A stretch of DNA of 64,000 bases. Origin: Blasia pusilla (Eukaryota). A model generated the notes under the pieces. It was not told the DNA's origin. It ran no database searches and saw nothing but the letters and a program-made list of their open reading frames with translations. How positions within the stretch are numbered: position 1 is the stretch's first letter; the number at the start of each line of letters is the position of its first letter. The translations under genes and the position numbers were made by a program. The DNA is taken from assembly GCA_050084515.1 (NCBI GenBank), contig CM114271.1, positions 39,494,001-39,558,000 of the forward strand, written 5' to 3'. Shown in pieces: positions 39,240-64,000 of the stretch.

Positions 39240-39882
39240 ATTTGTATCCCCTACCGAACTTGCAGCCAAACTTTCCTTTCACGCACCTACTTCGCAGTTG
39301 ATGAAGTCCAAGGATGGGGCACCCAATGTCGGCGAGTAGCAATTGTCACCCACATTTGTCGTATCGTGATCAAATATTTGTGACCAATTTCGTGTGTGAA
39401 GACTAGTATCAAATTGTGAAGTCATTGCACTTCTTTGCGCGCTCTCCTCCAACGAAGTTAGATATTCAAGCCTCAATTAGGCTCAATGCAAAGTGAGCAC
39501 AATTGTACCCCTTGAAGCTCCATGGGTCTCCATGAGAAATGGACTCAACTCATCCATTTCCTGCTATTTGATATGGGCTCATCCCAAACGCACAGCGCAA
39601 ATTAACAAAACGTATAAGTCAGCTATCTCCTGCCAAAACAACCTTCAGCAACTCTGCCCATGGCCCACCTCACCTTTGGGGCAATGATGCAGAAACCTTG
39701 GCAAGCACATATCATCACTTCCTTGCCAATCTTTTGGCAGATGCAAGGTTAGAAATTGCACGTTACAGGAGAACAAGAACGGTGCACCGAATTAGAGCGT
39801 AGTGGGTGGCAATCGACGTCCACAATGACAGTTACAAAGATAGTAGGAACCGCATTCCTCATCTGTCGCGTGGATGCAATTC

Positions 39883-39926
39883 CATCCATCCATCCATCCA
39901 TCCATCCATCAATCAATCAATCAATC
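39883..39926. repeat. Compound (CCAT)n(CAAT)n microsatellite
   Basis: ccatccatccatcc...caatcaatcaatc. Confidence 0.85.
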
Positions 39927-42900: not shown

Positions 42901-44149
42901 GCTACCACTAGGGCTCTTCAAAGAAGGCTGGTAACTAGTAGTAATAGAAATAGATCTATGAACTTGTAAATTACTATATTAGCCGATATGTTATAGCCAC
43001 TTGTGAATTCAGAACACAATGATAAAGCACAATAGAAAGCAAACCTTGGGCTAATACAAGTAGACATAAGTAACAGATTTCTTTATTAAGCAAATGACAA
43101 CCGGTAGATTCGCCTATATGAAAATATATGTGCACTCCATCTGCAAGTTGCAATATACAACCAACAGAGGAACAAGAGGTTAAATACTCCTGAAGAAGCA
43201 ATGTATTGAGAACAACACTTTGAAAGAAATGTGTACAAACGATGGAATCATGTACATTGTATATGTTTTGAAAATTTCTTTTACACATTCTCAAAACCAA
43301 TAAAATTGTTAAGTATATCAGGTAGAGAAGACTTTTTCTCTACCAAGGCTAGAAAACTATTATGAAAATGTGGCCATAGTGATGGAATATTGCCACTGGT
43401 ATTGTTCCACATACGAACACTTGGCAAAAACAACGCTGCAAACAATCATTAATCAGTACTAATCCGGGAATATTAGAAATACTTGAAGCAGAGTATATAA
43501 ACACCAAACGATGAAACATAGATGATAACACTTACATGTCGCCCTGCAGGTGTTAGATGCATTTCCTTTTCTTGGGTCTTGGAACTGATCCGCCTTAATA
43601 CCGCTTGTCAACCTTGCAAAGTGGGCTATAACTTGCTGGCGTGTGAGCTCGGCCTCATTGAAATCAATTCCTTTAAGAGCCATCACTTCTTTCTGAATTC
43701 CTGTAGAAAATAATTTGGTAGGTAAGCATACATATTTTAAGGGAAAAGAAGCCTAAATAACTGAGAATTAGTCCAAAATTGACAAAGCCTTGGGATCATA
43801 TTTACCTATTGCTGGGGGTTGCTTCCTCAACTCGCAAAATGATGTAACCCATGCCTTACGCTGATCTATCATGCGACTCAGTTTCTCGGCTTGTAATACC
43901 ATCATACCAGTACGAAGAATTGAGGCCTAAACTATTTGCGTATCTGAGTTGGGCATCGGTTGGTGGAACAATCTGAATGTTTGGTTCGTCGGCGAGTGTA
44001 GGGAGGAGTCCAAAATCATCTTTGCAAAGTCCAAATAGGACTTAGGTACCTGGACATATGGTTGTTAGTTTGGCATACCACAATTTAAAGTAGAAATGGT
44101 TGGGCGAAAAGTTTTTGACAAACCTGAGTAGTGCGATTGGCTTTTAATA

Positions 44150-45990
44150 TCAATGTTGGACGTAAGCAAAACTTTACATCCAATAGCTAAATACTAGAGT
44201 TTATGAAAATGATGATCAGATATCCACTCATTGAATTGGGGTTCAGGGGGAGCATCAGTTGAAACATGGAATGGAAAGATCTTAACTACACCAAATAACC
44301 GGCGTAACGCAACAATATTGAATAGTTTCACAATTGCACGGTGTGTACAAATCACATGGGCAGAATCATCTATGTAATCCATAGTTGTGTCTTCATTGAC
44401 AAAGGAGTTTCCAAGGCAGTTGTCTATTTGTTGTTGTATAGGACACACACACTTCTTATGTAAGATAAAACCCCAAAAATTTAGGATCATTGGAGTATTT
44501 AATAGCGGTTTGCAATGTAAATTTATTGTTGTTGGCAAAGAATGGTGAAGAAGATAAGTGGCAGAAAGAACAGATTGGCTGAACATTATGACGACAAACA
44601 TGAGGAAGTTGACATAAATCTCCTAGCAAAATGACAAGTTTAGTTGAGAAAGGATCTAATGTTGTTGAGGGACACACTTGGTGTAACCTCATAGTAACTA
44701 TCTGTAGGAGACGCGGCGTAAGCTTGGAGCATTAATCAATCACTATCACTTTTGCCTCTTTCAGACGCATGTAGTGATTTGAACCTATCTGCATTGTAGC
44801 TAGGTCTTCCTTTATAGGTATACCAAACGTAGAGTGCACGGTCATAGCATTTCTATGCAGGCGCACGATAGCAATTCCAGTAGCTGCAGTGAAAAGTGTG
44901 GGAATAGACTGAGCTGACCAAAATGTTTCCATGAATTTAATAAAAAAAAATTTACCACAACCAGGTGGCCTAGTGATCAACACAAGGCCCGAAGAAAGAG
45001 TCCAGATTTTGGGAAACAGTTCTACTTGCTCTGTGTTCAATATATCTAGGCGAACACTTGTTGACTGGTTGTCTAATCCAGAAGCGTTTGGTAGGGTGTT
45101 AGGTTGCTCTACAACATTAATAAATGAATCTACAGACAGGTCAAAGCAAATGTGTGGTGCAAGCACATCTAATGTTTTAGAGACGATTTTGCTAGTGTGG
45201 ACTTGGATCCACAAGTTTACAACATTACGTTCTTGGATTTCATCAACGATACAGGAATAAATTTGAATATACCCCTATGAATACATTCATGCAAATATGT
45301 CCATGTAGGTGAGCTTACTGACAATATCTCAGATTCAGATCGGAAGGAGATATTCTTCAAAAGCACTTTGTAAAAAAATTCGTCCCACTAATGCAACACA
45401 TGATATTCACTAAACCAAACAAGCATGTCTATTGTGTACACTGAGTTACCCACCGCATCAACACCAACAAGACTAGTAGAAGAGCATGTGTTTAGCCTAG
45501 AAACTTCATATTGGCTCCAATATTGAGTAAATGTTAAGTGAGATAAGCATTGAGGATGACTGCAGTATAGCGCAATAGGATGTATGCAAACAATTGATGC
45601 ATTTTTGTACAATATAGTGCGCAAATGTGGTGGACTAAAATCCATATATTCAACTGATTGTGATCTAGTAATAATTGGGATCTTGAGAGCTGTTTGTTAG
45701 TGCTGCTTCTGTAGAAGAAATAAAACTATTAAGAACTAGCCCAGATATTGGATGTAATCTTGTCATGTCCAAACTCTCAAGGCCAAGATACTTGGCACTT
45801 CTTGTATTAATGTTGAGTGCGCCATGTGGCTCACATTTTAAGGCATATTTCAGTAGATAAAACGACCATTGTACGTTTGTGACATGCTATAAATTCATGT
45901 GGGCACCCTTCCACAACAAGATAGTTGGGTGATATGGTATGACATTCCTATGCAGTTCACTCCGTCTGTATATGAATTTGACGACATCTT
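44150..45990 (-). pseudogene. Helitron RepHel remnant (Rep C-terminus + PIF1 helicase)
   Basis: RNVIPYHPTILLWKGAHMNL...YLLKYALK (~45835-45960); LNTEQ, LITRPPGCGKF (Walker A), AATGIA, TVHSTFGIP, VIVID (Walker B), LLGDLCQLP, VICTHRAIVKLFN. Confidence 0.85.
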
Positions 45991-46119
45991 CAGAAAGGGT
46001 GGCACATGTAGCCATGCTCCTCGACTATCAAGTGGTAGAAAGTTGTTGATAATGTACATAATACGAGAGGAGAAGACAAACATGGAAATTGTAAGGGAGT
46101 TGGGGGAAGAAGTGCTGCA

Positions 46120-46436
46120 TGTCATGACCATTCGGATTATGTCGTAGAGTATAGTGCTGGTAGAGGCCATTCCTTATGTAGGACCGTAGTGGCTTGGTAG
46201 AGATGCGGTTCCATACATAGGGTTGGGGGTTACTCACTTGGGCTTGCCCTCAAAGAACAGTCAGTTCTTTGAGTTGAGCCTGTTGCGTTGGGAGTTAGCC
46301 TTGGTAGTGAGTAGAGCTCTTGGCTATGGTGTTTCCCGCAAGCTTCGACCTAGATTCTCCCATCGTGGAGTGGGTTTGGCTCGATTGTATGTGATTATAA
46401 ACGTGTTTTATGACAGTAGGTCTTTCACGGATTTCA
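46120..46436 (+). repeat. Gypsy terminal repeat segment A1
   Basis: Matches 55045-55416 apart from a ~55-bp indel. Confidence 0.93.
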
Positions 46437-47816
46437 CTCAAAGAACTGGAGTAGATCGATGGTAGCTTCGATTATAGATGAGTAGGATCTGGTTAGGGCT
46501 GATTGTGTACTCAGCCGTGGATGTTCGCGGCTTGTTGCCTATGTTGGAGGTGTGAATCAGGTGCGTGGTTGGTTGGGAAAGAAGCGCCTTGCTGAGAGCT
46601 TTCCAACGCGCTGTAGATCGCCGGATTTCGTCAAGGGAGTTGGAAGTTATCAAGCATTGAAGATTCTGGTTCGTGTTCGACAGTTTTCTGATGTGGAGAG
46701 CTTGGAGTGCGGAAGCTCTGTTGAAGTTCATCCAGATCGGCTCAAGGTCTGGCTATGGTGGACAGCGGATCGGAGGGGCTGGTTGGTTGGTGACTCGTTC
46801 ATTGTTGGAGACGCCTATTCCGTTGGGGGCGCCCTGGTTGGACCTCTCTCCATAGCGAAGCATGGCGAACGGGGCATGTCTCGGCGTTTCGAGGCTTTGA
46901 GGCAACTCGTGGTAGCTCGGGGCGAGTGGGCGTGAGAGGCGGAGTAAGGAGCAAGCAAGCAAGCTTGCTTGCTTAGGCGTGAGGCAATTTTTGCAGGATT
47001 TGGGATTTGAGTTTTGCATAACTGGTCACCCATCTTTGGGCTATTCTGCCCGGAGGACGCTTAACTGCCGAGTTCTTAACTATGCCAGTGTACAGACTGT
47101 TGTAGCTCATTTGGTGTTGTTCGTAGATGTGTTAGGCGCTTTATGCATCTCAGGTTTTTGGTTGATGTACCTCTAGTGCATAGTACGGTGTAGCCTCTCC
47201 ATGCAGGTGGTATTTTTGGTCTTTTTGGCGTTCGACTAGCATGTCATCGACCATGGCGCGGAGTAGCTATTGCGTTAGAATTGTGTGGTGGGTTTTGTGG
47301 ATTCAGAGGGCACCACGTTTGGTGGATTGTGTTACCTTGATTTCCATTTGCGATTGGAGGGTTGTCGTTGGATTTCCTGTGTTTGGATCCCCTCCATCGT
47401 GCTTCTTGCTTGCGCGCCCATTGTTAGGGTTGACGCTGATTTCCAGAGTAGTGTTACTCTTGTGTGCTACCGGTAGTGAGGCTGGAGGGATGACGAGTAG
47501 ATTGTGGGAGACTTCTTGTGGTGATGACAAGTTAGGTTGCCTACACCCATAGCTAGTAGAGCTAGAATCGTATAGCGACATCGACGCGTCACTTGGTAAT
47601 TTGGTGGTGGTGCGGCATCGGCGTTGGTCATCACGGAGGCTGTCGGGTGGTACGGTTGGGGACCGTGGTGCGGACAGTGGTGGTTTCACACGGAGTGGAT
47701 TTAGGTATCGGCTACCTTTTCCACTTCCGACGGTTGATGAAGAGGAGGACGAGGGTGTTCCAAACACCGAGTCTTCTACGTTGTTATCGAGTGTTGCAGC
47801 TCCATTGATTTGGGAC

Positions 47817-48913
47817 ATGGACGGTGGATATGGGGCCATGAAGGGCCCACGACGATACTCGGGTGCAGTGGGTACCATTGAGTTGGAGGACTTCATGCAA
47901 AAGTTTGATACATGGTGTGATATGCAGATGTTGCAGAACGCCACGTTGTTTACACCCTTCTTGGCTTGGAAGGGGTTGTTTCAGCACTTGGAAGGACCAC
48001 CCATCGATGATTACCATGAGTTTAGGAAGGACCATGTTGCTGAGATTGAGGCATGGAGACAATATTGGTCTCCAGGCTATGTGTCTATCACCCATGGTGG
48101 TATTGGTAGTAGTGCTCCTACTATGCCAGCCAGCCCGATGTTGAGTGGTACGAGTACGAGCCGGAGTGGGGGTACCAGTGGAGGTACTAGTGGGGGTACT
48201 AACTAGTGGAGGTACTAGTGCCCCACCATCGTTTAGCCCGGTTGCAGAGTTCTTCAAGAGGTTGAAGAAGAACTATCAAGGAGTGAAGACGGAGAAGTTG
48301 AGGAATCTTCAGGACTTTGAGCGAAAAGACTGGTGAGAGTCTTCGTGAGGCATACACGCAGCGTATGCGACGCTTGATTTCGATTACCAGGGTGTGACCG
48401 AGGATCATGCGATCGATTTTTGGTATGGGATCTTGGACAGAGATTTGCGCCGTAGGGTGCGTGATGCTACTCTTATGAGTGATGATTCACCCACATTGAC
48501 CCATGTGTTTGCTCTATCTGAGAAGATTGAGCTTAACATGGTGAAGGAGAGAGTTGTGACATCCGCATTCAGTAGGGATACAACTACTACTTCTCGTGTT
48601 CAGCCGCCCACCTCACAATCTCGTAGTAGTGGTGGTGGTAGTAGTAGTGGGAGTCGTGGGGGGTACACGCGACCTCAGTCAAGTCCTAGAGGGACATTTG
48701 TGCAGAGACCATTGCCTTCATTTGCTGCCCATAATAAGGGGACAGTCATGTTGGACATGTGGAGGTGATCATGTTAGGAAGTTTTGTCCCCAAGAGGATG
48801 GGAGACGGACTTTGGAGGATGGGCCTCAGTGGGCCCCAACTCAGTGTGATCATTGCGGGAGACTAGGTCATCCTCGAGAGCGTTGCTTTGATCTTCATCC
48901 AGAGTTGAGATAA
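47817..48913 (+). pseudogene. Gypsy gag with two zinc knuckles (frameshifted)
   Basis: GPRRYSGAVGTIELEDFMQKFDTWC...; CWTCGGDHVRKFC and CDHCGRLGHPRERC. Confidence 0.8.
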
Positions 48914-49699
48914 GGCCGTGGCCGTGGTGGAGTAGCTCCGAGAGGCCGAGGTGGTAGAGGTGGACCAGTGGTTGGAGAGCCTACGGTGGCTACCCCTACC
49001 ACTACGACAGAGTCAGCTATGGCTGCCAGGATTGAGCGATTGGGAGAGAGTTGGCTACTATGGGGTATCCAAAGATAGATCAGTTCGGGAGCGGGGCTTC
49101 CACCTCTTATGGAGGGATGATCTCTCTTATATGACGAAAAGACAAAGACTGAGGTTGAGGCATCGGTGTGAATTCTGAGAGGAGCCACTCGAGCGTCGAG
49201 CCACGTGGTGCTCTTGGGAGTTGGACCCACAGAGGGGTGAGGCTAGGAGGCGGGCTAGGCTTCCCAAGTCATTCTTGTTGTCCGAGGTGCTTAGGACTCC
49301 ATCCATGGTTCCTCACGCGAGCCTATTGAGCCAGCAGTGGGGATCGAGGCATCTACATCGCGTGTAGTAGACACGGATGCAACATCCAATGCAAGATGCG
49401 GATGGCAACCGGTGTTGGGATCCCCATTGTTTTCGCCACACGGAGCGATGGCTTTAGGAGTTGACTTAGCTCTGTATTTGATTAGCGACCACGTTGTGTG
49501 AACGTGGGGTGTTATTCTTGCTACACGTGTTGAGGTGGATGAGGGTGTTGCGGTGGAGCGACCCTCTATGTCGGGAGTAGCATTGAGTACCGGTGCTACT
49601 GGCAGCAAAGAAAGGCGAAGATGGATGCATTACCAACCCGGCCACCATTGATCGTGAGAGGCTTACACTGGTGTATGTATGTTGGACAACCGGAGTGGG

Positions 49700-50100
49700 A
49701 TCTTCCGATTGGTGAGTCCTACAGACAGGTGTATAGACCAGATAGAGTCTTGTTAGACTCGGTGCCCAACCTTTAATTTGATGTTGGGAAAGGCGGCATG
49801 TATTGGTTTGGATATTCGGAGGTCGAGCTTGAGCCTTGCCCATTCCAGATTCAAACATCACTTGGAGGAGCCAACGATAGGTCTCAATTCATGACACGGG
49901 AGAAGTTTTCATGCTGTTGAGACCAGATCATGCGACCGATAGCTCCCGTTGGGAGTATCTACGGTAGTCACATCATCGAGTCGTATGATGTACTAGTTGG
50001 AGGAGCGATGATTGTACCCGATGGGTTTTCAGATGGATTCTCGGATGAGGCGTCTTATAGACCAGGTTGGCAGTCCGGGATGGACGTATGAGCCAAGTTC
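49700..50100 (+). pseudogene. Aspartic protease remnant
   Basis: agagtcttgttagactc-ggtgcccaacct reads RVLLDS(G)AQP with a 1-nt deletion at ~49760. Confidence 0.65.
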
Positions 50101-50469
50101 TGTGAGATTTATTTCGGGGCTCGACCAGAGGGTCTTCCCAACAAAGTGTTAGCATCTGTGGTCTGGTTTTAGTGGAGTAGTCACTTGGCCAGGAGACTTT
50201 TTGGAGGGTAATGTTTACGCTATGGATTCTCCTGCCCATGAGGAGGTAGAGGAGGTCCCTATTTTTGCAGCAAATGGCATCCTCATCGTTGGATGTGCCA
50301 CTTTGGAGTTCAGCGGTGCACTACGGCAGAGGCGTCGCCTAGTGCAGAGGCTTGGTGTGAGGTCGTTATACCTCACGAGGAAGAGGACGCCCACGGCGAA
50401 CTCCTACTACTGGCCCAGATTGGGTTATCCCCTTTGGATACTACACCCATTGTATGGCGATATCCGGAG

Positions 50470-51410
50470 GGCATTTGTGTGTTAGATCTCTTTGGTGGGA
50501 TTAGCAATGGTTTGGCGGCGATGTGCAGGCGGTATTCTGTCATGGAGATACGTGTATGTGGAGCAAGATGAGACGGCCGAGAGTCTCATCCCGACATATT
50601 GGTCGATTGATGCGGAGATATCTGAGTTGTTGCCGCCATCGCTATTTGTGGGTACTGGCGTGCTTTACCATCACACATTGCATTGTTAGAAGCGCAGGAC
50701 CTTGAGAGGGTTGGTCTGTGGATTTGGTGATTTTTGGATGGCCATGTCGTGAGTCATACAAGTCTTTGGTCGTGGTGAGGGATTACATGACCCTAGGTCT
50801 CGATTGTTTTGGGAGATGTTACGGGTGTTACGACATCTTTAGGTTCATCAGGCACGTGCTCTAGCTTACATTCTGGAGAATGTTCCATTGTTGGGTGACA
50901 CTCGGACCCGGATAATGGCGAGTGTTCATGAGGTGCGGTCTTGGATTGGACCAGCGGTGTTGTTGGATGCAGCACGAGTTGGCTCGCGTGCACATCGTCC
51001 ACGCTTGTGGTGGACAAACTTGTTGCCTAGGGAGGTTCTACGTCGAGCATATGATGCAGTGCAGCGGGATCCTCGCCTTACAATGGATAGTATCTTGGAT
51101 ACTGGGCGACTTTCTCAAGTGGTGAGGGTTATTGATCGGTCACCCATGGCAGTGGTGAACCATGTGGGCCAGCCTAGGATGGCACTACCCACATTTGTGA
51201 GTTTTCAGCGTCACATGCCTCGAGGAAGGTGGTCCGGGGCTTGTATGGGGATTCTCATGTGCGGGGATTGGTGGAGCCTAACGCTGATGAGAGAGAGCGT
51301 GCGATGGGATTTACTACTGGTGTGACAGCGGTTGCTTCTATTTCTAAGGCTTCATGACTTCATGTGTTGGGTCAAGCCATGGACCTGAATTTTTTGACTT
51401 GGATTTTGAG
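50470..51410 (+). pseudogene. DNMT3-like C5 cytosine DNA methyltransferase domain within Gypsy pol (frameshifted in this sequence)
   Basis: Motifs in canonical order: I VLDLFGGISNG (50479), II YVYVEQD (~50550), IV VDLVIFGWPC (50718-50747), DPRSRLFWEMLRVL, VI YILENVP (~50876), VIII DAARVGSRAHRPRLWWTNL, IX EPNADERERAMGF (~51273), X LGQAMD (~51367). Confidence 0.9.
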
Positions 51411-51779
51411 TCTTGGTATGGCCGAGCAGCGTCGACTTCGGACTATGTCTGTGGGTCTTCCACCCCTTGTAATGAGCTCGATGGCTACTGGGGACGGTAG
51501 AGGCATCGGGAAGCGAGGAGAGTAGTATTTTGCATCCTTGGAGTAAATGGGATGTAATGGTTGGGCATGTGGAGTTGGTTGCTCATCTTTGGTGGAGGAG
51601 TTATTTGCTCGGATGATGGTGTAGCTAAGGGTGTATCATCTTGTGAGGGGGTTGCGAGCGACCAATGGCATAAATCCTCTTCCTCTAGTATGCTAGTGGA
51701 GGAGACTTGGGAGCCATTACTTGGGCCCAAGCTTACGGGAGGTGAGAAACGACGCTGACACGGTTCCTACGTGCTTATA

Positions 51780-53130
51780 GGAGTTGTTTTGCCTTTAGCA
51801 TGAAGGAGTTGGGTTCTCTGGTTGGACCCGGTATAATGGATTGATTTGGCTAGTGATACGCCAATCTTCCGTCGTCCCTACCAATATAGTGATATGGAGA
51901 GGGACCTGATTCAGAGTAGGACGTTGGACCTTTGGAGGCTGGATTAGTGGAGTTGTCGCATGGAGAGTATGCATCGCCCTTTGTCATGCTCGCTAAAAAG
52001 GATATGCATGGCAACTACACGGATAGGCGGATGTGTGGAGATTACCGCCCTATCAATCGGCAAACCAAGGCCGATAGGTATGCCATGTCTACACCGAGGA
52101 GATCTTTGATGTGGTGGGACAGCAAAGATTTTCAGATACTTTGGATCTTGGCAGGATACCATCAATTGCCGATTCAGAGAGTGACAAGGCCAAGACAAAG
52201 ATTTTGGGGTGTCAACTCTCATGGCAAGGATTGTTTGTACCGGTGGAAATTCTTACCCTTTGGGTTGAAGAATGCACCTGCCGAGTTTCAAAGAGTGATG
52301 GGCGGGATCCTAGCGAGGGTTGGATTTTGTTCGGTGTTACATTGATGATATCTTGGTGTTGAGAACACGGTGGAGGAGCATCGATACATTTGCAGATGGT
52401 GTTTGAGTGGTTGAAAGCTCATGGTCTACGTTTGCATCCGGAAAGTGTAAGTTCTTCCATGAGGATGTTGAGTACTTGGGTCATGTGATCTATCCAGGTG
52501 GTTTGGGAGTTCAAAGCAAGCAAAGGTGGAGGCTATTGCACTTATTCCGTCCGGTAGATGTGAGTAGAGTTCGAGCATTCATAGGATTGGCGAACTACTA
52601 TCGGAGGTATGTGAAGGATTTAGTGCTATGGCAAAGCCTTTGAACCAATTGCTGAAATCAGATCAAGAGTGGCATCGGGAGATGATCAGAGAGAGCTTTG
52701 GGGAGCTTAAGGCCAGTTGGTGGCGGCGCCTATCTTGAGGAGACCTATCGAGGGCGCCCATTTCGATTACACTCGATTGGAGTAGGTTGGGACTTGGAGC
52801 GGTGTTGACACAACATGATGATGAGCACATGGAGTTTGTGGTGGCCTATGCAAGTCGTTCGAATAATGCAACGGAGTCGCGCTATAGTTCATATGAGGGA
52901 GAGTGCTTGGCAAGAGTATGGGTTGTGGCACACTTTAGGTGTTACTTGTTTGGCACACGATTTACCCTTGTTATTTCGATCACCACCCGCTCAAGTGGTT
53001 GATGGAGTCGGACAAGCTTACGGGGAAGCTTGCACGGTGGGCTCTTATCTTACAAGAGTATGACTTCCGGGTGGTACATAGACCTGGAGTTGCCAACCTT
53101 GATCTTCGATGGGTTGAGTAGGAACCCATG
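51780..53130 (+). pseudogene. Gypsy reverse transcriptase and RNase H (frameshifted)
   Basis: RMCGDYRPIN, GYHQL, LPFGLKNAPAEFQRVM, YIDDILV (~52338), YLGHVI, RAFIGLANYYRRY; GLGAVLTQ, VAYASRS, YSSYEGECLA, DHHPLKWL, KLARWALILQEYDF. Confidence 0.95.
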
Positions 53131-53499
53131 TACTAGCCAAGAGGATATAAGCGGGGCTAGATGGCATGGCGAGGTTGATGAGGAGATGGTGCCAGGTTGG
53201 CATGCATCCGCCTTTTATGTTGGTTAGGGTGGACTCTAGTATGGAGGACCACATGATATCTTACTCTAGTCGAGGGTAGATGGCGGCCTTGGATCCTTAG
53301 GTTGGAGATGGTTATACGGATCAGCGTGATATTCATGATGATGCGTTGGTGTTGGAGTTCCTACGGACCAGTAGGGTGCCAGGCATAGTGAGTGCCAAGG
53401 AGCGAGACCGTGTTCTTCAACGTGCTAAGAGGTATCGATTGGAGGGAACACATATTCTCCGCATGTGGGAGGATGGTAGAGTACGAGTAGTGCCACATT

Positions 53500-54300
53500 T
53501 GGCTCAGAGAGAGCGCATTGTGCGACATGCCCATGAGGAGTTGGAACATTTTGGGGTAAAGCGTACGTATAGCTTACTCCTTGGCCAGTATTGGTGGCGT
53601 GGCATGCATACTCAGTCAGCAGATTGGTGTCACGTTGTATGGTTTGTGACCGGGTGAGGGCATCATTTAATGCCCCTACACCACAATTACACCCCTTGCC
53701 TATTATAGGGTTGGGTTACCGTTGGAGTGTGGACTTTGCGGGACCGTTACCATTGACTGTACGACATCATCGATATGTGTTGGTGATGGTGGAGCACTTC
53801 TCCAAGTGGATTGAGTTGGTGGCATTACCGGACAAGGCAAGTGAGGGAACGGCGTATGCGTTTCTGGATAGAGTGCTTAGTCATTTTGGTGCACCGGTGA
53901 AGTCTTGACCGACCAGGGTACAAAGTTTCAGGGTGAGTTTCGTCTTGTGTGATAAGGCATTGATTGATCATCGGACCACGTCTTGAGATCATCCCAGGCG
54001 GATGGTTTGGGTGGCGTGTGGTTCGAGGCGGTGAAGAGGGCATTGCGCAAGTATGGCCTCTGAAGGGACATCTTGGAGACTAGGATATTCGATTTGCCAT
54101 GGTTAGCCATAGGGTATAGGTTCGATCGCCAAGCATCCTTGGCTTCCTTCTCACCTTATTTTTCATTATACGGCGAGATCCGGACTTGCCAAAGCAATTT
54201 GTCGGGAGTCTAGTGAGGTGGTGGACCTTGATGACCCCAGAGATGTGGATGAGGGTGTGTTCTCTCGTAGGCGGAGCTCTTTCGGAGAGTTATGCCAATG
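53500..54300 (+). pseudogene. Gypsy integrase (HHCC + catalytic core)
   Basis: HAHEELEHFGVKRT...CMVC; RWSVDFAGPLP, YVLVMVEHFSKW, LTDQG. Confidence 0.92.
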
Positions 54301-54627
54301 GCCTTTGAGAATCTTGCCATTGCTCAACACAGGGATACGTTGCGGTATGCAACCATTCGGGTGGAGGTTATCGACCATCGATTCAGAGGTTCCATGTGGG
54401 GACTATGTCTATTTATTTGCGCAGATTGCCCCGACAATGTTGGATGTGACGGCAGCCGCACTATTTTACGAAAGTGCGTGAGGTGTTAGCTTCGGAGTTC
54501 TCATGTTGGAGGGTCGTGATGGAGTTATTTGGAAGGACCATGTGCGTAATTGTGCGCCATGTCATCTTCCAAATGTGGATGGTGTCTTGTTGATCCAAGC
54601 TTAGCCATGATACGTGCTAGCTTGAGG

Positions 54628-54769
54628 TGCATGTTGTGTGGGTCTGCGGGTAACGCGGCCCGTATGTTGGTGTGTGATCGGTGTTCTAGGGGTTGGCACA
54701 TGATGTGTTTGACTCCACGTTTGGATGTTGTTCCTCTTTGGAAGGTGGGTTTGTCCTCGATGTACTTAG
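54628..54769 (+). pseudogene. PHD finger at the pol C-terminus
   Basis: CMLC...MLVCDRCSRGWHMMCLTPRLDVVP../WVCPRCT* gives C4HC3 spacing with one frameshift near 54740. Confidence 0.9.
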
Positions 54770-54938
54770 GAGAAGTAGATGACTTGATCTTTGCATGATA
54801 TGGATTACAGATGTGCGACTAATGATGGGGCAACCTAGCACCCGGCCTTCGATTCGGGCACCCAAGAAGGTGTATAGCATGTAGTAGATGTATAGGCTAC
54901 CGGGAGTTAGAGGACCTAACCGCTTGATTAGGGGGCGA

Positions 54939-55522
54939 GTTGTGGTACACTTGCGTTTGTGGATACTCGTCTATGTTATGTATGTATGTGAGTATGGTAT
55001 GTCGATGTATGTTGTATGACGATGGGGATTCGTGACGGACAATTTGTCATGACCATACGGATTATGTCGAGAGTATAGTCTTTGGTAGAGGCCATTCCTT
55101 ATGTAGGACCGTAGTGGCTTGGTAGAGATGCGGTTCCATACATAGGGTTGGGGGTTACTCACTTGGGGGTGACTTTCCCAGTAGGGCTACCAACCGCTCT
55201 TAGGTTGGAGGATATAAGGTGGCTTGCCCTCAAAGAACAGTCAGTTCTTTGAGTTGAGCCTGTTGCGTTGGGAGTTAGCCTTGGTAGTGAGTAGAGCTCT
55301 TGGCTATGGTGTTTCCCGCAAGCTTCGACCTAGATTTTCCCATCGTGGAGTGGGTTTGGCTCGATTGTATGTGATTGTAAACGTGTTTTATGACAGTAGG
55401 TCTTTCACGGATTTCAGTTGTGGTACACTTGCGTTTGTGGATACTCTCGTCTGTGTTATGTATGTATGTGAGTATGGTATGTCAGCGATGTATATTGTAT
55501 GACGATGGGGATTCGCACGACA
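54939..55522 (+). repeat. Gypsy 3' terminal repeats B1 (54939-55041), A2 (55045-55416), B2 (55417-55522)
   Basis: gttgtggtacacttgcgtttgtggatact...gacgatggggattcg..gaca occurs both before and after the second A copy. Confidence 0.92.
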
Positions 55523-56600
55523 TGCACCGTTGGAAGATTGACCGAATCTAAACTTCTATTGAGATGATTCCGTGTGTCTCCAAGATGTACAGAACCTTAG
55601 AGAAGATATAGCAATGGAATCTTGGCTTCGACATTCAAATGAAAATCAGAGCATTGCAAATTATGTGCAATTATACCTAGAGGAAGTGTTCTTTTACCAG
55701 GCTTACAAAAGCAAGGAGTGTCAATTCATATTAGGATTCTGGTTTGAATGGATATGCTTGATGTTAGTTGAGCATGGAAATGGGAACATAATTTGCATGG
55801 ACTCGACATTTGGGACAAACAAGAACAAGGTAAATTCTGCAGGACCTCTCTATGGATCATAGGGGGTGGTCAGGGAGGGAATGTGTTACAATATTGAAGT
55901 CGCAATGTTGTTGATAATTATATCTGGAAATTTGGTACTGTCAATGTCTAATGTTGCAATTGTATTGTGCGTTAAGTTTCCGTTGTGCACCGTCATGGTA
56001 TATGATAAGTTCCACAAAGGGATCCCTGTAGCTAGGGTTTTGAAAAACTCATGCAAAGAGGTGGACATCGCCAATTAAGTGGTTAGAAGAAGGTTGCAAT
56101 TAGTGGGCATAAACAGTCATGCAATGAATGGAACCTGGAGTTGGATGTTCCATCAGTGCCAAGTTGCATAATGACAGACTACTCATTGGCAGAAATAAAT
56201 GCACTCATGTGAGTAAGCTCTGCAGTTTCCACTTGTGAGTATGATGATACATGATGCCTTACTAGACTTTGTAATTGTGTGTGGTTTGCAAAATTTGACA
56301 CAATGTGCATTCTGCCGTGAGCAAGCAAGTATTTAACAAAATCTCGATCATCCTCTACTTGTGGCATGTCCGCCACGATTGGCACAAGCATTTAAGAACA
56401 AAAATCTTGGATTACGCATAACGATGTGAGATTAGCACAAGGTTGGGAAAGATCATGTACACAAAGCCAACTTCGAATGAAGTACTTTCTCATGGCCGGG
56501 ATGTGGGCATGGCTCCATTGGCTTCAACATTAAAATCCTTGGAGGCTCTCTATGTTGACTTCTCTTCGAGACAAACTTTCTGCACTCTTCCCTCCAATAT
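55523..56600 (+). pseudogene. Mutator (MULE) transposase remnant interrupted by the Gypsy insertion
   Basis: IICMDSTFGTNK, FPLCTVMVYDKFHKGIPVA and LWHVRHDWHKHL are MULE DDE-domain motifs; the sequence probably continues left of the Gypsy at ~46040-46119. Confidence 0.8.
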
Positions 56601-58198
56601 ATTTGGAACTGACATTCATTTGCATTGCCTTGGGCATAATGCAAAAGCGTTTAACTATGTATTTCGTGGTGGCTTCCATGGTTGCATGTGGACAAAGTCC
56701 GTGTCCGTGCATCACTCTTGAAAGGGCGATGTATTCCATATAGCAATTTCAATATTCCATCATCGACAATGGCATTGGTGAAAAGACAATCAACGGCAGG
56801 AATTATATATGACGTCTATAATTAGAATACTCTACATGTGATTGCTCTTGGAGTTCGAAGGGAAACATATGTAAACATCAGCTTTCATGACTAGAAAAAT
56901 AGGAAATGGTGATGTTGGACAAATACAAAACCCTGGTGTTGGACAAAAAATTATCACAAGCCATGGCAGCATGGTGAGCAATTGGCCGGAAAATTGTACA
57001 TAGGTCGTGCAAGTCCTTTGCAGAATACAATAGCATCTTAGTCGCTTGTCATGACCCCTTCTGAGTGCTTCGATATTCTTGGACACAGCGACAAGTTCAG
57101 ATACAGGTTCCTTTTCAAGAATGGAAGTAACATCGTCTCCTTTAGAGGCTACGACATCAAACAACGCTAGGTCTTGTGTGACACGGACTGTACATAAGAG
57201 GGTGTTGTATAGATTAGAGATCTAGATACATAAATTCCTATGATAGTAACCATCGTTCTCGGCGCTCTACACCAAAAAAATATCACCTTCCCGAGGATCA
57301 AGGCAATATGTTCCTTTTTTCCAAGCTATGTAGTTCTCGTAGTCTGCGGGGAGTTTAAATGGACGCTTACGACGAAAGTTCGTCCGAGTTGAATGGATTC
57401 CTGAACTGTCAGAGTTCGCATTCTTAAGTTTGTCCATCGGTGTCACTTCACTAGGCGCTTGGTCCATCGTAGGGCGCACAAGGGATATAGAACACCACAT
57501 AAATACAATTAATAACCCAAAACACATAATCCGAACAAGGAGGTAACCTCAACTATCAACTACTCCGAGGTGAAGATATGGTGTGAAGAATGAGGCAACA
57601 ATCTGAGATACGAAACATACAAAGCGCAAGGACATAGAAGGAGATGAAAACAGACAAAACGAAGCACAAATAAACCAAACTAAACTGCATCTAAACGAAC
57701 CTCTGCCAGCGTTCCTCCGCTCGTCCCACCGCTCCACCTCGCGTAGCTCGGATAAACAGCAAGAGACGACGAGGAAACTCACGCTAGAATCACTCCACCT
57801 CGACCATCCCGCAACTTGGATAAACAAGGAATGGATATACCGCAGGAAACAAAGATGAAATGGCCAAAACGGAGCAAATGGGCCTTCGAACTGCCTATAA
57901 AAAGTCAAGGCGTCTTTTAGGCATCCCGCCTAAAACAGGAAAAATTAGGCCGGACCGCAAAAATGCCCGCATTTCATATTCAAAAGCCTCCATGATGCCG
58001 CGGTTGGCATGACCATGTACTATCCCAGGCTATGGCATCATATGCCCGCCATCCCATTCTAAGACCATTCTATGATTCCATGATTGCATCATGGCGACGG
58101 CCATCGGTCCATGGAGAATGCCATGGTTCTGCATCGCATGCAGGACCATGGCGTATTCAACCATGGTTCTGCGTTGCATCGGGACCAGGAATCCGTAA

Positions 58199-58319
58199 GG
58201 ATGGAGAGGATATCCGTCACTGGACGGAGCTATCCCGGGCTGGACACCCGAACCCGTTTGCGCAAGGATGGAGAGGATATGCGTCACTAGACGGAGCTAT
58301 CCAGGGCTGGACACCCGAA
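58199..58319. repeat. 67-bp tandem repeat whose second unit is split by hAT copy 3 (resumes 62621-62644)
   Basis: ggatggagaggatat.cgtcact.gacggagctatcc.gggctggacacccgaa|cccgtttgcgcaagga. Confidence 0.9.
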
Positions 58320-61300
58320 CAATGAACGGGGAGATCCGGGGTTGTGAGTAATGCGAAGGGTCCGAGGGGCCCTTCGGTGGGGTGGAGACCCCACCGCATG
58401 CAAACCAGGCCTCATTCGTGGCCTTTCACTTCCGACTCCCATGACCCAAGTGACTCCAAAGTGTTGCAGCGTTGCTGTTCCATGCCCAAGCTCTGGTTCT
58501 CTATCATTCTCATTTTCGTTTCCTGTGCGACTTCGGAGTCTCGACGCCTCATTTTCGATTCCTGTGCGACTTGAGTCTCTACGCCTCATTTCTTGACTAT
58601 ACTATTCAGTTTGGACTCAGGGTGACGAGCTCTGCTGAAGCTTTTTTTCTCATTTTCTCGGATTGAGGAGTCTCTCGAGCTTGCCTCATGCTCGAAGTGT
58701 TGAGCATGCTTACTCTCGTGGAGCCCAGACAATGGAGTCCATAGACTCGGGCATCCAGCTTGTCTTTGTTGTCTACATTTTGCTTTAGTCTAGGGTCGTG
58801 CCACTTTTGTCTTTCATTGTATTGCCGATGATTTTCTCAAGTAGAGGGACTTCTGTCTTGCAGGGATGCTCATCTTTGTGCTCTTTGTTTCATTTTTCTT
58901 GCATTGTGGCTACTACTCTCTTGCGGCTTTCTCCTCGAGTCTCGTTTGTAGCTTTTGGCTTGCTGTCACTACGGTCCCTCTGTCCCTATCCCACGCGGGA
59001 TTCTGTTGCTTTCATCTTTAGATTCTCGCGTTTGGGGACTTCGGTTTTGCAGGGAGGCTCATTTTCCTGCTCTTCGCTTTGTGTATCTTGCATTGTGTGG
59101 CTACTATCGTCCGGCAACTATCTTGCATTGTGCATATTTTTACTCGAGTCTCTTTTGCAGCTTCTGTCTTTTGTTGTAATTGCGTCCCTCTCCCATACGG
59201 TCACCGCGTTTGTCACTGTCCGTGTATCAGGTCCGTATCAGGTTGGTTTGATTCACTTCATTTTTCTCATCGTCTCTATCTTGCAGATGTGCGATCACAC
59301 AATGGCATCTCTATCTTGCCGCCAACTGCTCATGCGTCTCTATCTGGCTGCCGAGTGCTCATGATCGTAACATTGCTGCCACATTCTCAAGTAGAACTTG
59401 CGATGGCAATTACTCAGCTTTGAGTGTGGCACTTCAGCCGCACCTTTCCCTTGAACCCCTACGGCATCCGATCTTGCAGCTTTTGCTGCTCTGGTCTATG
59501 CCTCACAAGAGCCTGGGTTCCAAGCTTCTGAAATTTCCATGTGTTAGTCCGAAGCTCCTGATGAAATTTCCTTGTGTTAGTCCGAAGCTTCTGATTTACT
59601 TGTATTAAACTCAATTCCCCTCTGGTAGTCTTGTGAGTCGCTTTTCTAAGCTAGTAGAAGGAGATTAGAACTCCCTGTATATAAGAACTTCATTTTTGTA
59701 GTTCTCATGGCCAAACGCCAGAGAACAATGAATGAACTGTTATTCAAGGAGGTTCCCAAGGAACAACGTGACATCATAGCTCTCTCTGGATCATCTGATG
59801 AGAGGGATGACCAAAGCATATTAGGCAGCAATGGATCGATTCCTGAGAAGAATCGTGTAGCTTGGAAAGACGTGTGGTATACTATGTACGATTGGATAAG
59901 TTTTGATCCAGAAAGTGGGAGGATTCATTGTAATGTTTGTAGGAAAGGTAAAGGCAAGAGTGTATTTGCTAGGGATGGTGCTATCAATTGTAAGGTATCG
60001 GCATTCACAGATCATGCAAAGTCAAACGAACACATAAAACTTTCTTGGGCCGCCCATGGAGGTAAGAAGTCTATGGCTAAGGCCATAGCTACATCCAACC
60101 GAACATGTGAGGTTGCTTTGCTGACTTTATTCAGGTCTGCATACTTTCTTGCAAAGGAGGCCTTGCCTTTTTCAAAATTCAAGTCTCTCTGTAAGTTGTT
60201 GCTTGCTGTGAATGCACCTATCACTAGAGACTTGTATCAGCATGAGAAAAGTTATAGTGAGATGTGTTTCTTCATAATCCAAGTTTTGATGAAGAAGACT
60301 CTAGCTAGAGTTCAGGCCTCTCCTTTCTTTGGGATCATGATCGACTAATCTACAGATATATCTGTGACAGGTCATTTAGTGGTATTTGCAACTTTCATTG
60401 AAGAGGGTCAAGCCGAGTGTTGTTTTCTAGGCTTGCTTCATTGTGAATCCAAATGCTCAAATGCTATCACTAACATTCTGTTGGAGTTCATCAAAGATGG
60501 AGGACTAGAACATTAAAAAATGGTAGCATTTGGATCCGATGGTGCCTCTACAATGGTTGGGAGGCAAACCGGGGTTGCTTCACAATTGAAGCAAAAGGTG
60601 AGCCCATATTTTCTTTCGGTGCATTGTGTAGCCCATAGGACGAACCTTGCAGCTTTGACAGCTGCAAGAGCACCTCATTGCAAGGGAATTTTGATAGAAA
60701 TCGATTCTATTCTGAACGCTGTAGCAGGATTTTTCAAAAGGTCTTCCAAGAGGAAAGCCAACTTAGCATCACTTCAAGAAAAGTTGAATGACTCTCAACG
60801 AGTCATGAAGAGGTATTATAAGATCAGATGGTTGAGCCGGTGGCAAGCTGTATGTACTTTGTGTGATTCATTGGAGTCTGTATTGACATATTTTAGGGAT
60901 ATTCCTTTGTCTGAAGATGATGGGAATGCCTCAAATTTATACAACAAGCTAAGATCATTCCAAATGATCTATCAGTTATATTTTCTTGCTGATATTCTTT
61001 CTAGCCTTGCTAACTTGAGTAAAATCTTTCAGTACAAGTTTGTCGATGTTAGCACTATTGGTAGCATTGTTAGCTCTGAGATAGCTTCTATTACCATGAA
61101 TTATGTCCTAGAAAGTCAAGATTTGAATGCATCTACTTTTTCGGAAGAAACAGGTTATCATATCCCACCTGATTTTGGACCCCGTGATGGATATCTAAGA
61201 CGTTTACAGTCTGAAATTAGGGGTAGTAAGTTTCATAGCATTGATATGTTGAGAGACCGCACCGGGAGAGATCTAGAAGCTGCTCTTTTACTTCAAAAGA

Positions 61301-62620
61301 CATATGCTGAAAGTGTATGTTCAGCTTTGCAAGATCGGTTCAGGGATAACAATCTGATTGGTGCAATGAAAATTTTGAACCCTTTACACATGCCCTCCCG
61401 ACAAGTTGGGTTAAGCAGTTGGGGGTGTAAGGACTTGGAAGACTTGTGTGGACATTTTGGATGTGAGTTACCATTGAGGGGAAACTTACAACCATTTGTT
61501 ATAAACCCGGCTGCTGTCAAACAAGAATTTCAATCCTTCAAGTTGATGGCTACTACAGAGTGGAAAGATCGCAATTTCAGGGATCTATGGGCAATGGTGA
61601 GTTGGAGCCCAACTTTACAATGTAAGTTTGCTAATTTGCTTGTCTTGGCAAATGTTGCAAGGGTGCAATGTGTTAGCACTGCCATATGTGAGAGGGCTTT
61701 CTCAATTCAGAATATGTTAAAGACCAAGTCACGTAATAGATTATCTACTAAGCATCTAGATGCTGTTTTGAGGATTGCTCTAGAGGGACCTGTAGATGAC
61801 TTTGATGACATGTTGGCCGACTCTGTAATTTTGTGGAAAACTTTTGCACATTTCAGATACCTGTATGCTAATCCTGATAGGTACATGAATTCTGAAGCTG
61901 ACGTGCAGTTTGATGCCCCATCCCTAGACATGTCCACTTGAAGTGAGTTTGTTTTGTAGGATGTAGAGCCCCTCTAGAATACTTTGGAGCTTTGGATCTC
62001 CCACTATTGTAGAGGGGCAAGATCCTTGGTTCCCAAGTGGTTGGGGAGCATGGCCAGGTTCAACTCCTGCCAAGGATGCAATAGAGTCCACTAGGGGTCC
62101 AAGGAACTGTCTTTCTTCCTTTCTTGCATTAAGCAAAGAAGAGATAGGGAGGAGGGATCTTAGGGACAAGTCATGCTGCTATGATGCTTTCTTGCAACAC
62201 CATGGGCCACTACAGCATGGGCCACTACATAGATGTGAAGGACAAAAATCCTTCCTTTGGCGTTTGGCCATGAGAACTACAAAATTTGTTCTCTTAACTC
62301 CTTCCACACCATAGTGTTTGTGCACAACGAAAAACAAAGGAAGCGGAGAAAAAATCCATGCCCTATCCCCTATCAGAATGAGGCTTGTAAATTTACGGGC
62401 ACAAGTTAAAGCTGCAGGAAATTTTATGCCTCCCGAAGAATGAAGGGGAAATGGCTAACAGAAATTGAAAACAACCAGAAAAATAATCGTCCCACATTTT
62501 GAATTTCGGATCTGAACCGAGTGCTAAAAATAACCCCAATTTTGTTTGGCGTGACGAATTTTTCAAGACCCTAAAATACTTCTACTAAGTCGAATGTTTA
62601 AAAAAACTCCCCGGACCTTG
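58320..62620 (+). mobile_element. hAT DNA transposon (copy 3), complete, with 8-bp TSD
   Basis: TSD CACCCGAA at 58312-58319 and 62621-62628; ends caatgaacggggag... and ...ctccccggaccttg. Confidence 0.96.
59707..61941 (+). pseudogene. hAT (ZNF862-like) transposase, single frame with two premature stops
   Basis: 744-codon frame with TAA at 60346 and 60514; CNVC..H..H finger, GIMID*STD, GSDGAS, HCVAHRTNL, IRWLSR, VSTAICERAFS. Confidence 0.95.
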
Positions 62621-64000
62621 CACCCGAACCCGTTTGCGCAAGGAGGGTCACTTGGCGAAATTAATGCCGGGGCTGTGGTTTTTGACGCGAGGCCAGAGCG
62701 CCTGCCTGCATAGCAGCACGCCATTATTTTGGAGTCTGGATAGCCCTGACGCCCTAGATTGACGCCCCTACGACCGGCTTTCAGACAAGAACTGTTGTCT
62801 ACTGGATAAGAGTGCAGGAGTGAAGAGTCCGCGTCTGCTCTGAGTGCTCAGTGCATTGAGTATTTGAGCAGGTGAGAAACAGTGTGCGTGTTTTAGGGTT
62901 AGGAAAGTGCGTCGGTGTGGTTACGGTGGAACCGATGGATTAAGGATTTTGTGGATGAGCGAGCCCTAGAGCTGTGGGTTTGCAGATGAAGTCCTCGTGC
63001 AACTGGTTTACGATCAGTTCCTGGTGCGTGTGCTGATCCGAGTCCCTGGGATGCGTTGCTAGCAGTTACCTTCTGGTGAGCGACTGGATCCGTTGGCCAT
63101 TTATCGTGTGACGTTTGTGTTTTTGCCGGAATTCTGTGATGTGATGTGTTGCGATGCAAGCTCTGGGGAGGTTTTGTATTTTAGCTTCGCGTTCTAGTGA
63201 GGTGAAGGATTGTAGGCAAAGAGCTGAGGTGATCAAAAGCCGAGTGAAGCTGTTTGTATCCGAGCTTCCGTGCGACAATCTGGTAAGTGGGAGCTGGGAA
63301 CGATGGATCGTGGATGATTCCACTGCAACCCTGTTGTGGCTGCATGAAATCGTGTAGGAAGAGACGAGAGATCTCGTGCTCCTGTGGCGGTGCTAAAAGT
63401 GATGGTGGCGTACAAACGGAAGACGTGTTTCGTATTTCTTATGCAAGGGCTGCTAAGAGGAGCAGGCGTGGTGTTTAAATTATCAAGCCGGTTGTATGAG
63501 GCTGCCTGTTTTATGGATCTCTGCTCTTCCATATCAGAGTGGAGATTAACCCTTGAGAGACGATCGGTGCCATCAGTAGTAAGCTTGCAAGGGAGAGCAC
63601 GGATATGAACATGGACGGTCCGATGGATCGGCCACCGAATCCCTTGAATGCGGAAGGTTCTGTTCTACTTGTGTCCTAAGCGCAAGCTAGATTTCTAGAT
63701 TTGTGAGTACCATGGTAGGACTAGGGAGTGTCTTCTGTTTTGCTGATCACGTACATGACAAACTCACCATATCCACTGTGAATACTTTGGCTTATTCTCT
63801 GGTGAAAAGAATTTGGCTGGATCGTTAGGATACTGGCAGATTCCAAGTCGAGCAACCCCAAGGACGGAAACTGTGATTAGACCCCGATTCTCATGCTACT
63901 TGAATTCTCACTTTCACAATCTTACCCATCTGACACCCTCATTCGTCCCTCGCTCATGAGATTTAAATGGAATTTGGTTCACTCTAGCCAAGAGATGCGA

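Follow-up and report, generated by a model that had tools for sequence, protein, structure and literature searches.

The PHD finger of a methylase-bearing Ty3/gypsy element

The window examined here is a stretch of 64,000 nucleotides from Blasia pusilla (GenBank assembly GCA_050084515.1, contig CM114271.1, positions 39,494,001 to 39,558,000 of the forward strand), and all coordinates are counted from its first letter. Positions 46120-55416 hold a Ty3/gypsy long terminal repeat (LTR) retrotransposon, in which gag, protease (PR), a DNMT3-like DNA methylase (hereafter DNMT), reverse transcriptase (RT), RNase H (RH), integrase (IN) and a PHD finger follow one another in that order. The PHD finger, together with its relationship to the integrase and to the methylase, is the subject of this report; an earlier note, made from the letters of the window, had proposed that it forms part of a reader and writer of chromatin marks combined in one retroelement. 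The parts of the element, with the evidence on which each was placed, are as follows (ORF, open reading frame).

46120..46436, + strand: 5' LTR, beginning TG and ending CA (blastn against the 3' LTR)
47553..48913, + strand: gag-like region with two CCHC-like motifs near 48780-48900, weak (motifs in ORF 48560-48913)
49738..50001, + strand: aspartic protease remnant (tblastn with the protease part of L003 ORF1)
50398..51432, + strand: DNMT3-like cytosine-5 DNA methyltransferase, over several frames (motifs, phmmer, tblastn)
51938..52523, + strand: reverse transcriptase (tblastn; Pfam RVT_1 on 51920-52342)
52739..53118, + strand: RNase H (Pfam RT_RNaseH, 2.9e-20 and 7.3e-7, on two ORF pieces; tblastn 52742-53082)
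53301..53995, + strand: integrase H2C2 zinc domain and catalytic core (Pfam; tblastn 53460-53995)
54094..54612, + strand: integrase C-terminal region, its frame broken many times (aligned to P0021 and P0015 with frameshifts allowed)
54628..54769, + strand: PHD finger, C4HC3 (ligands, PF00628, homologues; tblastn start 54619)
54770..55044, + strand: 3' untranslated part, with a purine-rich run just 5' of the LTR (sequence reading)
55045..55416, + strand: 3' LTR, with about 53 extra bases (55168-55220) relative to the 5' LTR (blastn)
55416..55515, + strand: second copy (93%) of 54938-55032, directly 3' of the 3' LTR (self-blastn)

The PHD finger is read in two frames. The first Cys-x2-Cys pair, an 11-residue loop, the second Cys-x2-Cys pair, four residues and His-x2-Cys lie in one frame at 54628-54708 (this frame starts at 54400), and the closing Trp-x-Cys-Pro-x-Cys, followed by Thr and a stop codon, lies in another at 54746-54769, where the last Cys pair spans 54752-54763 and the stop 54767-54769. 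Frameshift-aware alignment to intact relatives places the break that splits the finger near 54739; all eight zinc ligands are present. Thus, the C4HC3 finger that the earlier note saw at the end of pol is real and lies where it was placed, albeit interrupted by a frame break that the note had bridged silently with '..'. The Pfam check that it proposed gives a match above the curated cut-off: ORF 54550-54795 scores 33.7 bits against PF00628 (E 3.6e-8; cut-off 24) over profile positions 1-33 of 47, the match being limited to these positions because of the frame break, and in intact relatives the PF00628 matches are full length (1-47). The finger adjoins the integrase C-terminal region and ends pol, which is the place of the chromodomain in chromoviruses; Pfam found no Chromo family among the 67 window ORFs (the plus-strand ORF pieces scanned between the LTRs) or the 56 relatives scanned.

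The 82-residue ORF that contains the first part of the finger matches 27 longer proteins, with E values of 3e-18 to 7e-8 and identities of 58-83%, and all but one of these (26 of the 27) carry a precomputed PHD domain. Among those with a named source are eight from Marchantia polymorpha, two from Sphagnum fallax and one from Calypogeia fissa. In three of the 27, the integrase core (rve) and the PHD share one ORF, which ends a few residues past the last Cys. Indeed, the PHD is in frame with the integrase in P0012, P0015, P0021, P0189 and the second ORFs of L001 and L003, and the refuting condition set by the earlier note, a PHD out of frame with integrase, is thus not borne out in the intact relatives. 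An origin of the PHD-like string by chance, by capture of a host exon or from an adjacent transposon can be excluded: the frame break inside the finger is the only point in favour of such an origin, and the finger scores over the Pfam cut-off, is joined to integrase in hundreds of relatives and lies inside the LTR pair.

The finger is strongly conserved. The full C4HC3 pattern is found in 176 of 189 PHD segments, 140 of which (of the 176) share a single spacing, and an alignment with 16 relatives (A1) shows little or no variation at the zinc ligands or at the Trp that precedes the last Cys pair. Between the intact relatives L001 and L003, dN/dS (the ratio of non-synonymous to synonymous substitution) is 0.047 for the PHD, 0.027 for the integrase, 0.033 for RT/RNase H and 0.185 for the DNMT; these ratios are rough, since dS is near saturation, and they indicate that the PHD evolves under purifying selection. 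Just N-terminal of the PHD, at 54530-54570, there is a conserved Asn-Cys-Ala-Pro-Cys-His-Leu-Pro stretch, the Cys and His residues of which are likewise invariant or nearly so in A1; it might form part of a further small metal site or of an N-terminal extension of the PHD.

Searches of the PDB with the L003 and Marchantia fingers point to a particular class of reader. The best matches are to CHD4 PHD1/2, PHF12, PHF21A (E 1e-12, 51 bits) and PHD1 of KDM5A/B and Lid, as well as ATXR5, DPF3, KAT6A, UHRF1 and AIRE; no ING, BPTF or TAF3 finger occurs among the 60 PDB matches listed for either PHD search. Fingers such as those of CHD4, PHF12, PHF21A, KDM5 (PHD1), ATXR5, UHRF1 and AIRE read the unmodified N-terminus of histone H3 or unmethylated K4, and those of ING, BPTF and TAF3 are H3K4me3 readers, in which the cage Trp sits two places before the zinc-binding His. 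In the element fingers, this place is occupied by Gly in 165 of the 176 segments, and an aromatic residue lies one place before the His in 167 of them. The Pfam families matched by the PHD in the window ORFs and relatives are PHD, PHDvar_NSD, PHD_NSD and similar, with no ADD family listed.

The DNMT3-like enzyme and its association with the PHD finger

The methyltransferase that the earlier note placed in the same element is confirmed by both phmmer and tblastn. A three-frame reading of 50150-51950 contains FGG (motif I), PC (IV), ENV (VI), RPR (VIII) and ERERAMGF...GQAMD; the piece 50843-51322 matches 445 proteins at E<=1e-3 (phmmer, 1.8 billion representatives); and the window DNMT is 64% identical to P0030 over 130 residues (tblastn). 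Pfam detects no DNA_methylase on the window's broken DNMT pieces at E<=0.1, and finds PF00145 in L003 ORF1 (1.8e-13), L001 ORF1 and P0189. The best PDB matches of the L003 enzyme are DNMT3A/3B/3C (E ~2e-7), followed by HaeIII (7.5e-5), HhaI (3.7e-4) and plant DRM (7e-3), and in the alignments it shows motifs I, IV (Pro-Cys-Gln), VI (Glu-Asn-Val) and VIII.

An integrase–PHD query matches 311 longer proteins, and the 120 of these that were listed include sequences from Haematococcus, Pleodorina, Tetrabaena, Volvox and Chromochloris; one match is a complete ORF from a transcriptome assembly. Additionally, a scan of metagenome contigs gave 391 confirmed places, of which the best 80 were kept (L001-L080), and some of these loci may be the same sequence from different samples. 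The family is large and spans bryophytes and green algae. A further protein, P0260, carries the label of a Spirochaetia metagenome bin and is most likely a misbinned eukaryotic sequence. The integrase C-terminal ORF of the window (54113-54478) on its own gave none of 211 longer-protein candidates at E<=1e-3, this piece being too broken for the result to indicate isolation.

Two of the kept loci, L003 and L001, are intact and 78% alike in DNA: in both, a gag-PR-DNMT frame (1369 and at least 728 residues, respectively) is followed by an in-frame TAG and a frame for RT-RH-IN-PHD (1047 residues). In P0189, DNMT-RT-RH-IN-PHD forms a single ORF of 1516 residues. The earlier note had called for the PHD and the methyltransferase to be counted together across the family, and they do occur together almost without exception. 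Among 32 long DNMT matches, the PHD follows the integrase in 21 of the 22 proteins that bear one (Pfam). When proteins were drawn from the 150 best DNMT matches, and so not chosen for the PHD, it was detected by local phmmer, queried with L003 parts, in 28 of the 30 that extend into the integrase C-terminal region; the misses are P0176 and P0087, the latter with the order DNMT-RT-RH-IN. The DNMT and PHD are found on one locus in all 30 assessable metagenome loci (30/30), and among the best 80 of the 391 places the PHD is found behind the C-terminal part of integrase in 70 of the 71 assessable loci, the miss being L047 (L070 was scored by its Pfam match, its PHD having been missed by the distance rule of the script).

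The position of the DNMT is variable: it lies before RT in 26 loci and in the window, and between RNase H and the integrase in nine loci. The latter arrangement, which we call algal type, is also that of most long proteins of the DNMT and integrase–PHD searches, and in it the PHD is followed by a tail with a median length of 274 residues. In a FastTree phylogeny of the integrase–PHD part (midpoint root), the DNMT-before-RT type and the ORF2-like rows form one clade of 38 with SH-like support 93; the 91 rows of this tree comprise every row in which the DNMT precedes RT or in which none lies between RNase H and the integrase, plus 45 of the 89 DNMT-before-IN rows taken at random, the 28 unclassified rows being excluded. 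A small group represented by P0259 and L058 has the PHD, and in it no DNMT was detected within the (at most) 629 residues upstream of RT or between RNase H and the integrase.

A number of further features were observed among the relatives. The in-frame TAG between DNMT and RT (L003:5083-5091 and L001:4661-4669) is followed by CAG TTA in one element and by CAA TCA in the other. The CARYYA context is associated with stop-codon readthrough in plant viruses, and both TAG contexts fit it; with readthrough, if it occurs, more gag-PR-DNMT than RT-RH-IN-PHD would be made. Only two of 27 sequences (the 26 loci and the window) have the motif, which is absent from the window at 51650-51670. Accessory domains are also seen in some algal-type relatives: P0148 has a Tudor domain (PTM/DIR17-like) behind its PHD, and P0128, P0142 and L067:6118-11835 have a G-patch between DNMT and integrase. 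In Marchantia, integrase–PHD fragments (P0001-P0020) are annotated as hypothetical 'PHD-type domain' proteins; in one of them, P0018 (MARPO_0060s0038), an integrase–PHD piece is joined to DNMT-like pieces, and this looks like a chimeric gene model over transposon remnants.

Condition and surroundings of the window copy

The 9.3-kb unit is bounded by an LTR pair with TG...CA ends, the repeats being 96-99% alike (blastn): 46120-46242 matches 55045-55167 at 96% with 2 gaps, and 46241-46436 matches 55221-55416 at 99%. The purine-rich run before the 3' LTR is a putative polypurine tract. The bases to the left of 46120 and to the right of 55416 do not match as a target-site duplication, and the 3' end of the insertion may be rearranged, because the 3' flank is a copy of 54938-55032. 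Several of the internal parts are recognized weakly. The gag-like ORFs are without any Pfam match at E<=0.1, and the frameshift-aware alignment to L003 ORF1 shows little similarity from its start at 47727; in L003 and L001, the protease part matches Asp_protease_2 at 22.4 and 22.0 bits, respectively, under the cut-off of 24.3; RVT_1 on 51920-52342 scores 27 bits (E 4.4e-6; cut-off 29.6); and in the integrase, Integrase_H2C2 is found at 1.7e-10 and rve at 3e-7 (31.1 bits, under the cut-off of 32.6).

Relative to intact L003, the coding part of the window copy aligns at 48% amino-acid identity, interrupted by 61 frame breaks and 14 stops, although these figures are rough in the poorly conserved gag. 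The integrase–PHD part (53603-54766) is 85% identical in amino acids to P0021, with 16 frame breaks and two stops, and it is here that a suspicion of assembly error arises, because the same part in 19 related metagenome-contig loci has 0-1 frame breaks and 0-11 stops. Were the breaks errors made in a very high-copy repeat, the copy would be less broken than it reads; the similarity of the LTRs (96-99%) also favours this, as does the finding that the best-matching sequencing run contains only 62% of the sampled words of the stretch. The evidence from contigs of four public runs (contigs drop rare variants) argues in the other direction: indel variants occur within three bases of only five of the 16 breaks, and there 87-99% of the depth of run X1 backs the window. 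Moreover, a repeat pair of 885 bases at 100% identity and an open 474-residue hAT ORF, both elsewhere in the window, would be unexpected at an indel error rate of ~1%, and where the window alone departs from most other copies, many of the changes are G-to-A or C-to-T, which fits real decay. No obvious link of the breaks to homopolymers was seen. We consider the breaks to be real rather than artefactual by about two to one, so that assembly error is a serious, if less probable, explanation. The combination of 16 breaks with two stops might represent an unusual, indel-rich form of decay, perhaps of a defective lineage that has been amplified, or else leftover error of the assembly in a very high-copy repeat. 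In the source organism the family is extremely abundant, as 41,812 contig pieces of run X1 match the 1.5-kb stretch 53300-54800 at a likeness of at least 90%.

The element lies in a neighbourhood rich in transposable elements, as the earlier note had described, but its claim that the copy sits in a Mutator-like element (MULE) remnant was not borne out. In the flanks, Pfam identified the remnant of a PIF1-like helicase on the minus strand (44735-45274) and, at 59650-61938, a hAT transposase, with no MULE, MuDR or SWIM family; the scans, which were otherwise empty, took in 50 of the 66 ORFs of at least 70 residues in 38000-46119 and 55417-64000, and all 97 ORFs of 35-69 residues in 43300-46119 and 55417-59600. 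Further to the left, 31695-37662 is another element with terminal direct repeats of ~1 kb, within which 31846-32730 equals 36629-37513 (885 bases, 100%) with a further 149 bases at 99%; it has a weak integrase-like match on the minus strand (35332-34856), and probably belongs to another family of LTR elements, inserted very recently. Additionally, 14151-16520 and 59707-62076 are inverted copies of a hAT-type transposon, 83% alike, and the right-hand copy contains the open 474-residue ORF with a hAT dimerization domain, preceded by an ORF with a C17orf113-type zinc finger.

Possible roles and comparison with known systems

We propose, with a probability of about 0.62, that the PHD finger is a chromatin tether for the integration complex, and that it binds the H3 tail, most likely in its K4-unmethylated form. 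In outline, the integrase PHD would bind the N-terminal tail of H3 on nucleosomes, and this binding would bias the landing sites of new copies, in parallel with the C-terminal chromodomain of chromoviruses. The preferred state would most likely be H3 unmethylated at K4, that is, chromatin away from active promoters, because the nearest solved relatives read unmodified H3 and there is no aromatic residue two places before the His. The DNMT would be a product of its own; its coding region lies well upstream of the PHD and, in L001 and L003, is followed by an in-frame stop. For elements that bear such an enzyme, the published proposal is methylation of their own DNA. A role of the PHD in integration is suggested because it is fixed after the integrase while the DNMT moves, and because it is kept where no DNMT is detected. 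There are precedents for such tethering: chromodomains direct the integration of chromoviruses (PMC6673714), and in an engineered case the PHD of ING2, fused to the integrase-binding domain of LEDGF, redirected HIV-1 integration (PMC8149907).

A number of observations weigh against the tether. Its mechanism rests wholly on analogy, and the window copy is defective as read: it cannot make the protein and reads as dead. The best phmmer match is a weak predictor of PHD specificity, and the residue before Cys1 is not a conserved acidic one, the commonest pairs at this point being LA, LP and LR. In PHF21A and AIRE, an acidic residue just before Cys1 contacts unmethylated K4, and so the methyl-state preference of the element finger is uncertain. 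Finally, the near-constant co-occurrence of DNMT and PHD (28/30 proteins; 30/30 loci) would also fit a joint function, as would the algal-type order DNMT-IN-PHD.

The earlier note proposed that the element pairs a histone reader for integration targeting with a methyltransferase, as an ADD/DNMT3-like module in mobile form. Taken as a joint function, this would mean that the PHD senses H3K4me0 and directs or licenses the DNMT3-like enzyme, as a mobile counterpart of ADD-DNMT3, and that methylation of new copies, or of the DNA around them, is confined to suitable chromatin. The parts of this idea that stood are the co-occurrence (21/22, 28/30 and 30/30), the likeness of the enzyme to DNMT3A/B/C above other solved structures, and the resemblance of the finger to those that read unmodified H3K4, which is the mark sensed by ADD; moreover, the algal order would permit a single mature protein. 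What did not stand is the architecture, as the PHD is fused to the integrase, is canonical and is not an ADD domain, no family of that kind being among the Pfam matches. In the subfamily of the window, RT, RNase H and integrase lie between DNMT and PHD, as does the in-frame TAG in L001 and L003; the PHD keeps to its place behind the integrase while the DNMT is found in two places; some PHD-bearing members have no detected DNMT (the P0259/L058 group); and the DNMT has a dN/dS four times as high as the PHD. As the two proteins might nonetheless come together in trans, in the particle or in the integration complex, the idea is weakened rather than refuted. On balance we regard a reader-writer module of this kind as unlikely. 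Still more improbable, in our judgement, is that the PHD engages a non-histone partner (a chromatin or import factor of the host, the element's Gag, or nucleic acid) or serves as a zinc module that stabilizes the C-terminus of the integrase: PHD-like folds with non-histone partners are known, and the lack of a conserved acidic residue before Cys1 would be in keeping with this, but the Pro-x-Gly-x-Trp-x-Cys-Pro-x-Cys ending and the overall pattern are close to those of fingers solved with H3 peptides (PHF21A, 51 bits, and CHD4), and conservation of the finger from green algae to bryophytes, under strong purifying selection, agrees with a conserved target such as H3.

A bolder reading may also be entertained, although we think it doubtful: an algal–bryophyte Ty3/gypsy clade would carry a two-part epigenetic kit, a PHD of the H3K4me0-reader type on the integrase and a DNMT3-type methyltransferase, that recreates the logic of ADD-DNMT3, its copies being steered into H3K4-unmethylated chromatin and self-methylated at or after integration. 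If so, the single DNMT-IN-PHD protein of the algal type could couple integration and methylation directly, and the two DNMT positions would mark a relocation, or a second capture, of the enzyme onto a PHD-bearing backbone.

Transposons with chromatin tools of their own show how mobile DNA negotiates with host silencing. Retrotransposons that bear a DNMT and integrases that bear a reader are known separately; here, both are found in one element across a very wide range of green organisms, and selection on the PHD reader is as tight as on the enzymes. Were the PHD to read unmethylated H3K4, the element would respond to the cue that the cellular de novo methylase uses, and the family would then offer a natural system in which to ask whether the choice of insertion site and self-methylation are linked, and how reader specificity shapes the accumulation of transposons in early land plants. 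Of smaller, practical value, surveys of chromatin readers should treat the Marchantia 'PHD-type domain' fragments as transposon remnants.

Among cellular proteins, the element finger shares with PHF21A/BHC80, CHD4, PHF12, KDM5 PHD1, ATXR5 and AIRE the same C4HC3 pattern and Pro-x-Gly-x-Trp-x-Cys-Pro-x-Cys ending; it differs from these chromatin fingers in that acidic residues before Cys1 are not conserved. In cellular DNMT3A/3L, the ADD domain is adjacent to the catalytic domain in one polypeptide and regulates catalysis. The element resembles this arrangement in joining a zinc finger of the H3-tail-reader type to a DNMT3-like catalytic domain in one genetic unit. It differs from the ADD domain of animal DNMT3 (PMC12344493) in having a canonical PHD, carried on the integrase, and the integrase lies between DNMT and PHD even in the nine DNMT-IN-PHD loci.

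PHD fingers are found in other retroelements as well, as several sources describe: many retrotransposons encode one (PMC6673714); they are a common accessory domain of Chlamydomonas transposons (PMC8557442); examples include CR1-like non-LTR elements, REM1 of Chlamydomonas and the Penelope-like Chlamys (PMC8557442, PMC6673714); and cnidarian retrotransposons carry PYGO-like PHDs (10.1101/2021.11.30.470311). These belong to other classes or hold the finger in other positions (inside RT or endonuclease in Chlamys), and the passages on them mention no DNMT in the same element. The EpiLTRs, presented as a new toolkit in 10.64898/2026.05.21.726589, combine a chromodomain with two methylases, one for adenine and one a DNMT placed as sister of DNMT4. 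They are thus like the present element in being LTR retrotransposons that join a histone reader to a DNA methyltransferase, and unlike it in their components, as here these are a PHD and a DNMT3-like enzyme. That source names a streptophyte 'Gypsy-DNMT3', and 'PHD' occurs in its text only as an academic degree. Chromoviruses (PMC6673714; 10.64898/2026.05.21.726589) likewise place a histone-reader domain at the very end of the integrase, with a proposed role in integration targeting; here, the domain is a PHD instead of a chromodomain, and the likely mark is the H3 N-terminus or its K4 state, not H3K9me.

The closest known system is KnitGypsy-Dnmt3 of the streptophyte Klebsormidium nitens, an LTR Gypsy element with an unrearranged DNMT3 inside Pol, the DNMT being under purifying selection with a Ka/Ks below 0.2 (de Mendoza et al. 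2018, PMC5890265). The present element is like it in being a Gypsy element with a cytosine-5 methyltransferase in gag-pol, DNMT3-like by its nearest solved structures, and the corresponding dN/dS is 0.185 (L001 versus L003); it is unlike KnitGypsy-Dnmt3 as described, in a comparison made by text only, in its bryophyte-like and green-algal sources and in the integrase–PHD fusion. The text of PMC5890265 contains neither 'PHD' nor 'chromodomain' nor 'Marchantia' (this does not cover the domain drawing of its Figure 4c), and one supplement contains neither 'PHD' nor 'PF00628' nor 'KnitGypsy'. Likewise, full-text searches and the texts read gave general statements on PHD fingers in transposons, and none saying that the DNMT3-bearing Gypsy lineage carries an integrase PHD, a result that leaves out the figures and most supplements, where the domain may be drawn without being named. 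The window element appears to be a bryophyte-type member of the DNMT3-bearing Gypsy kind and, as far as this literature could be read, the integrase–PHD fusion is a conserved and apparently unremarked feature of that lineage.

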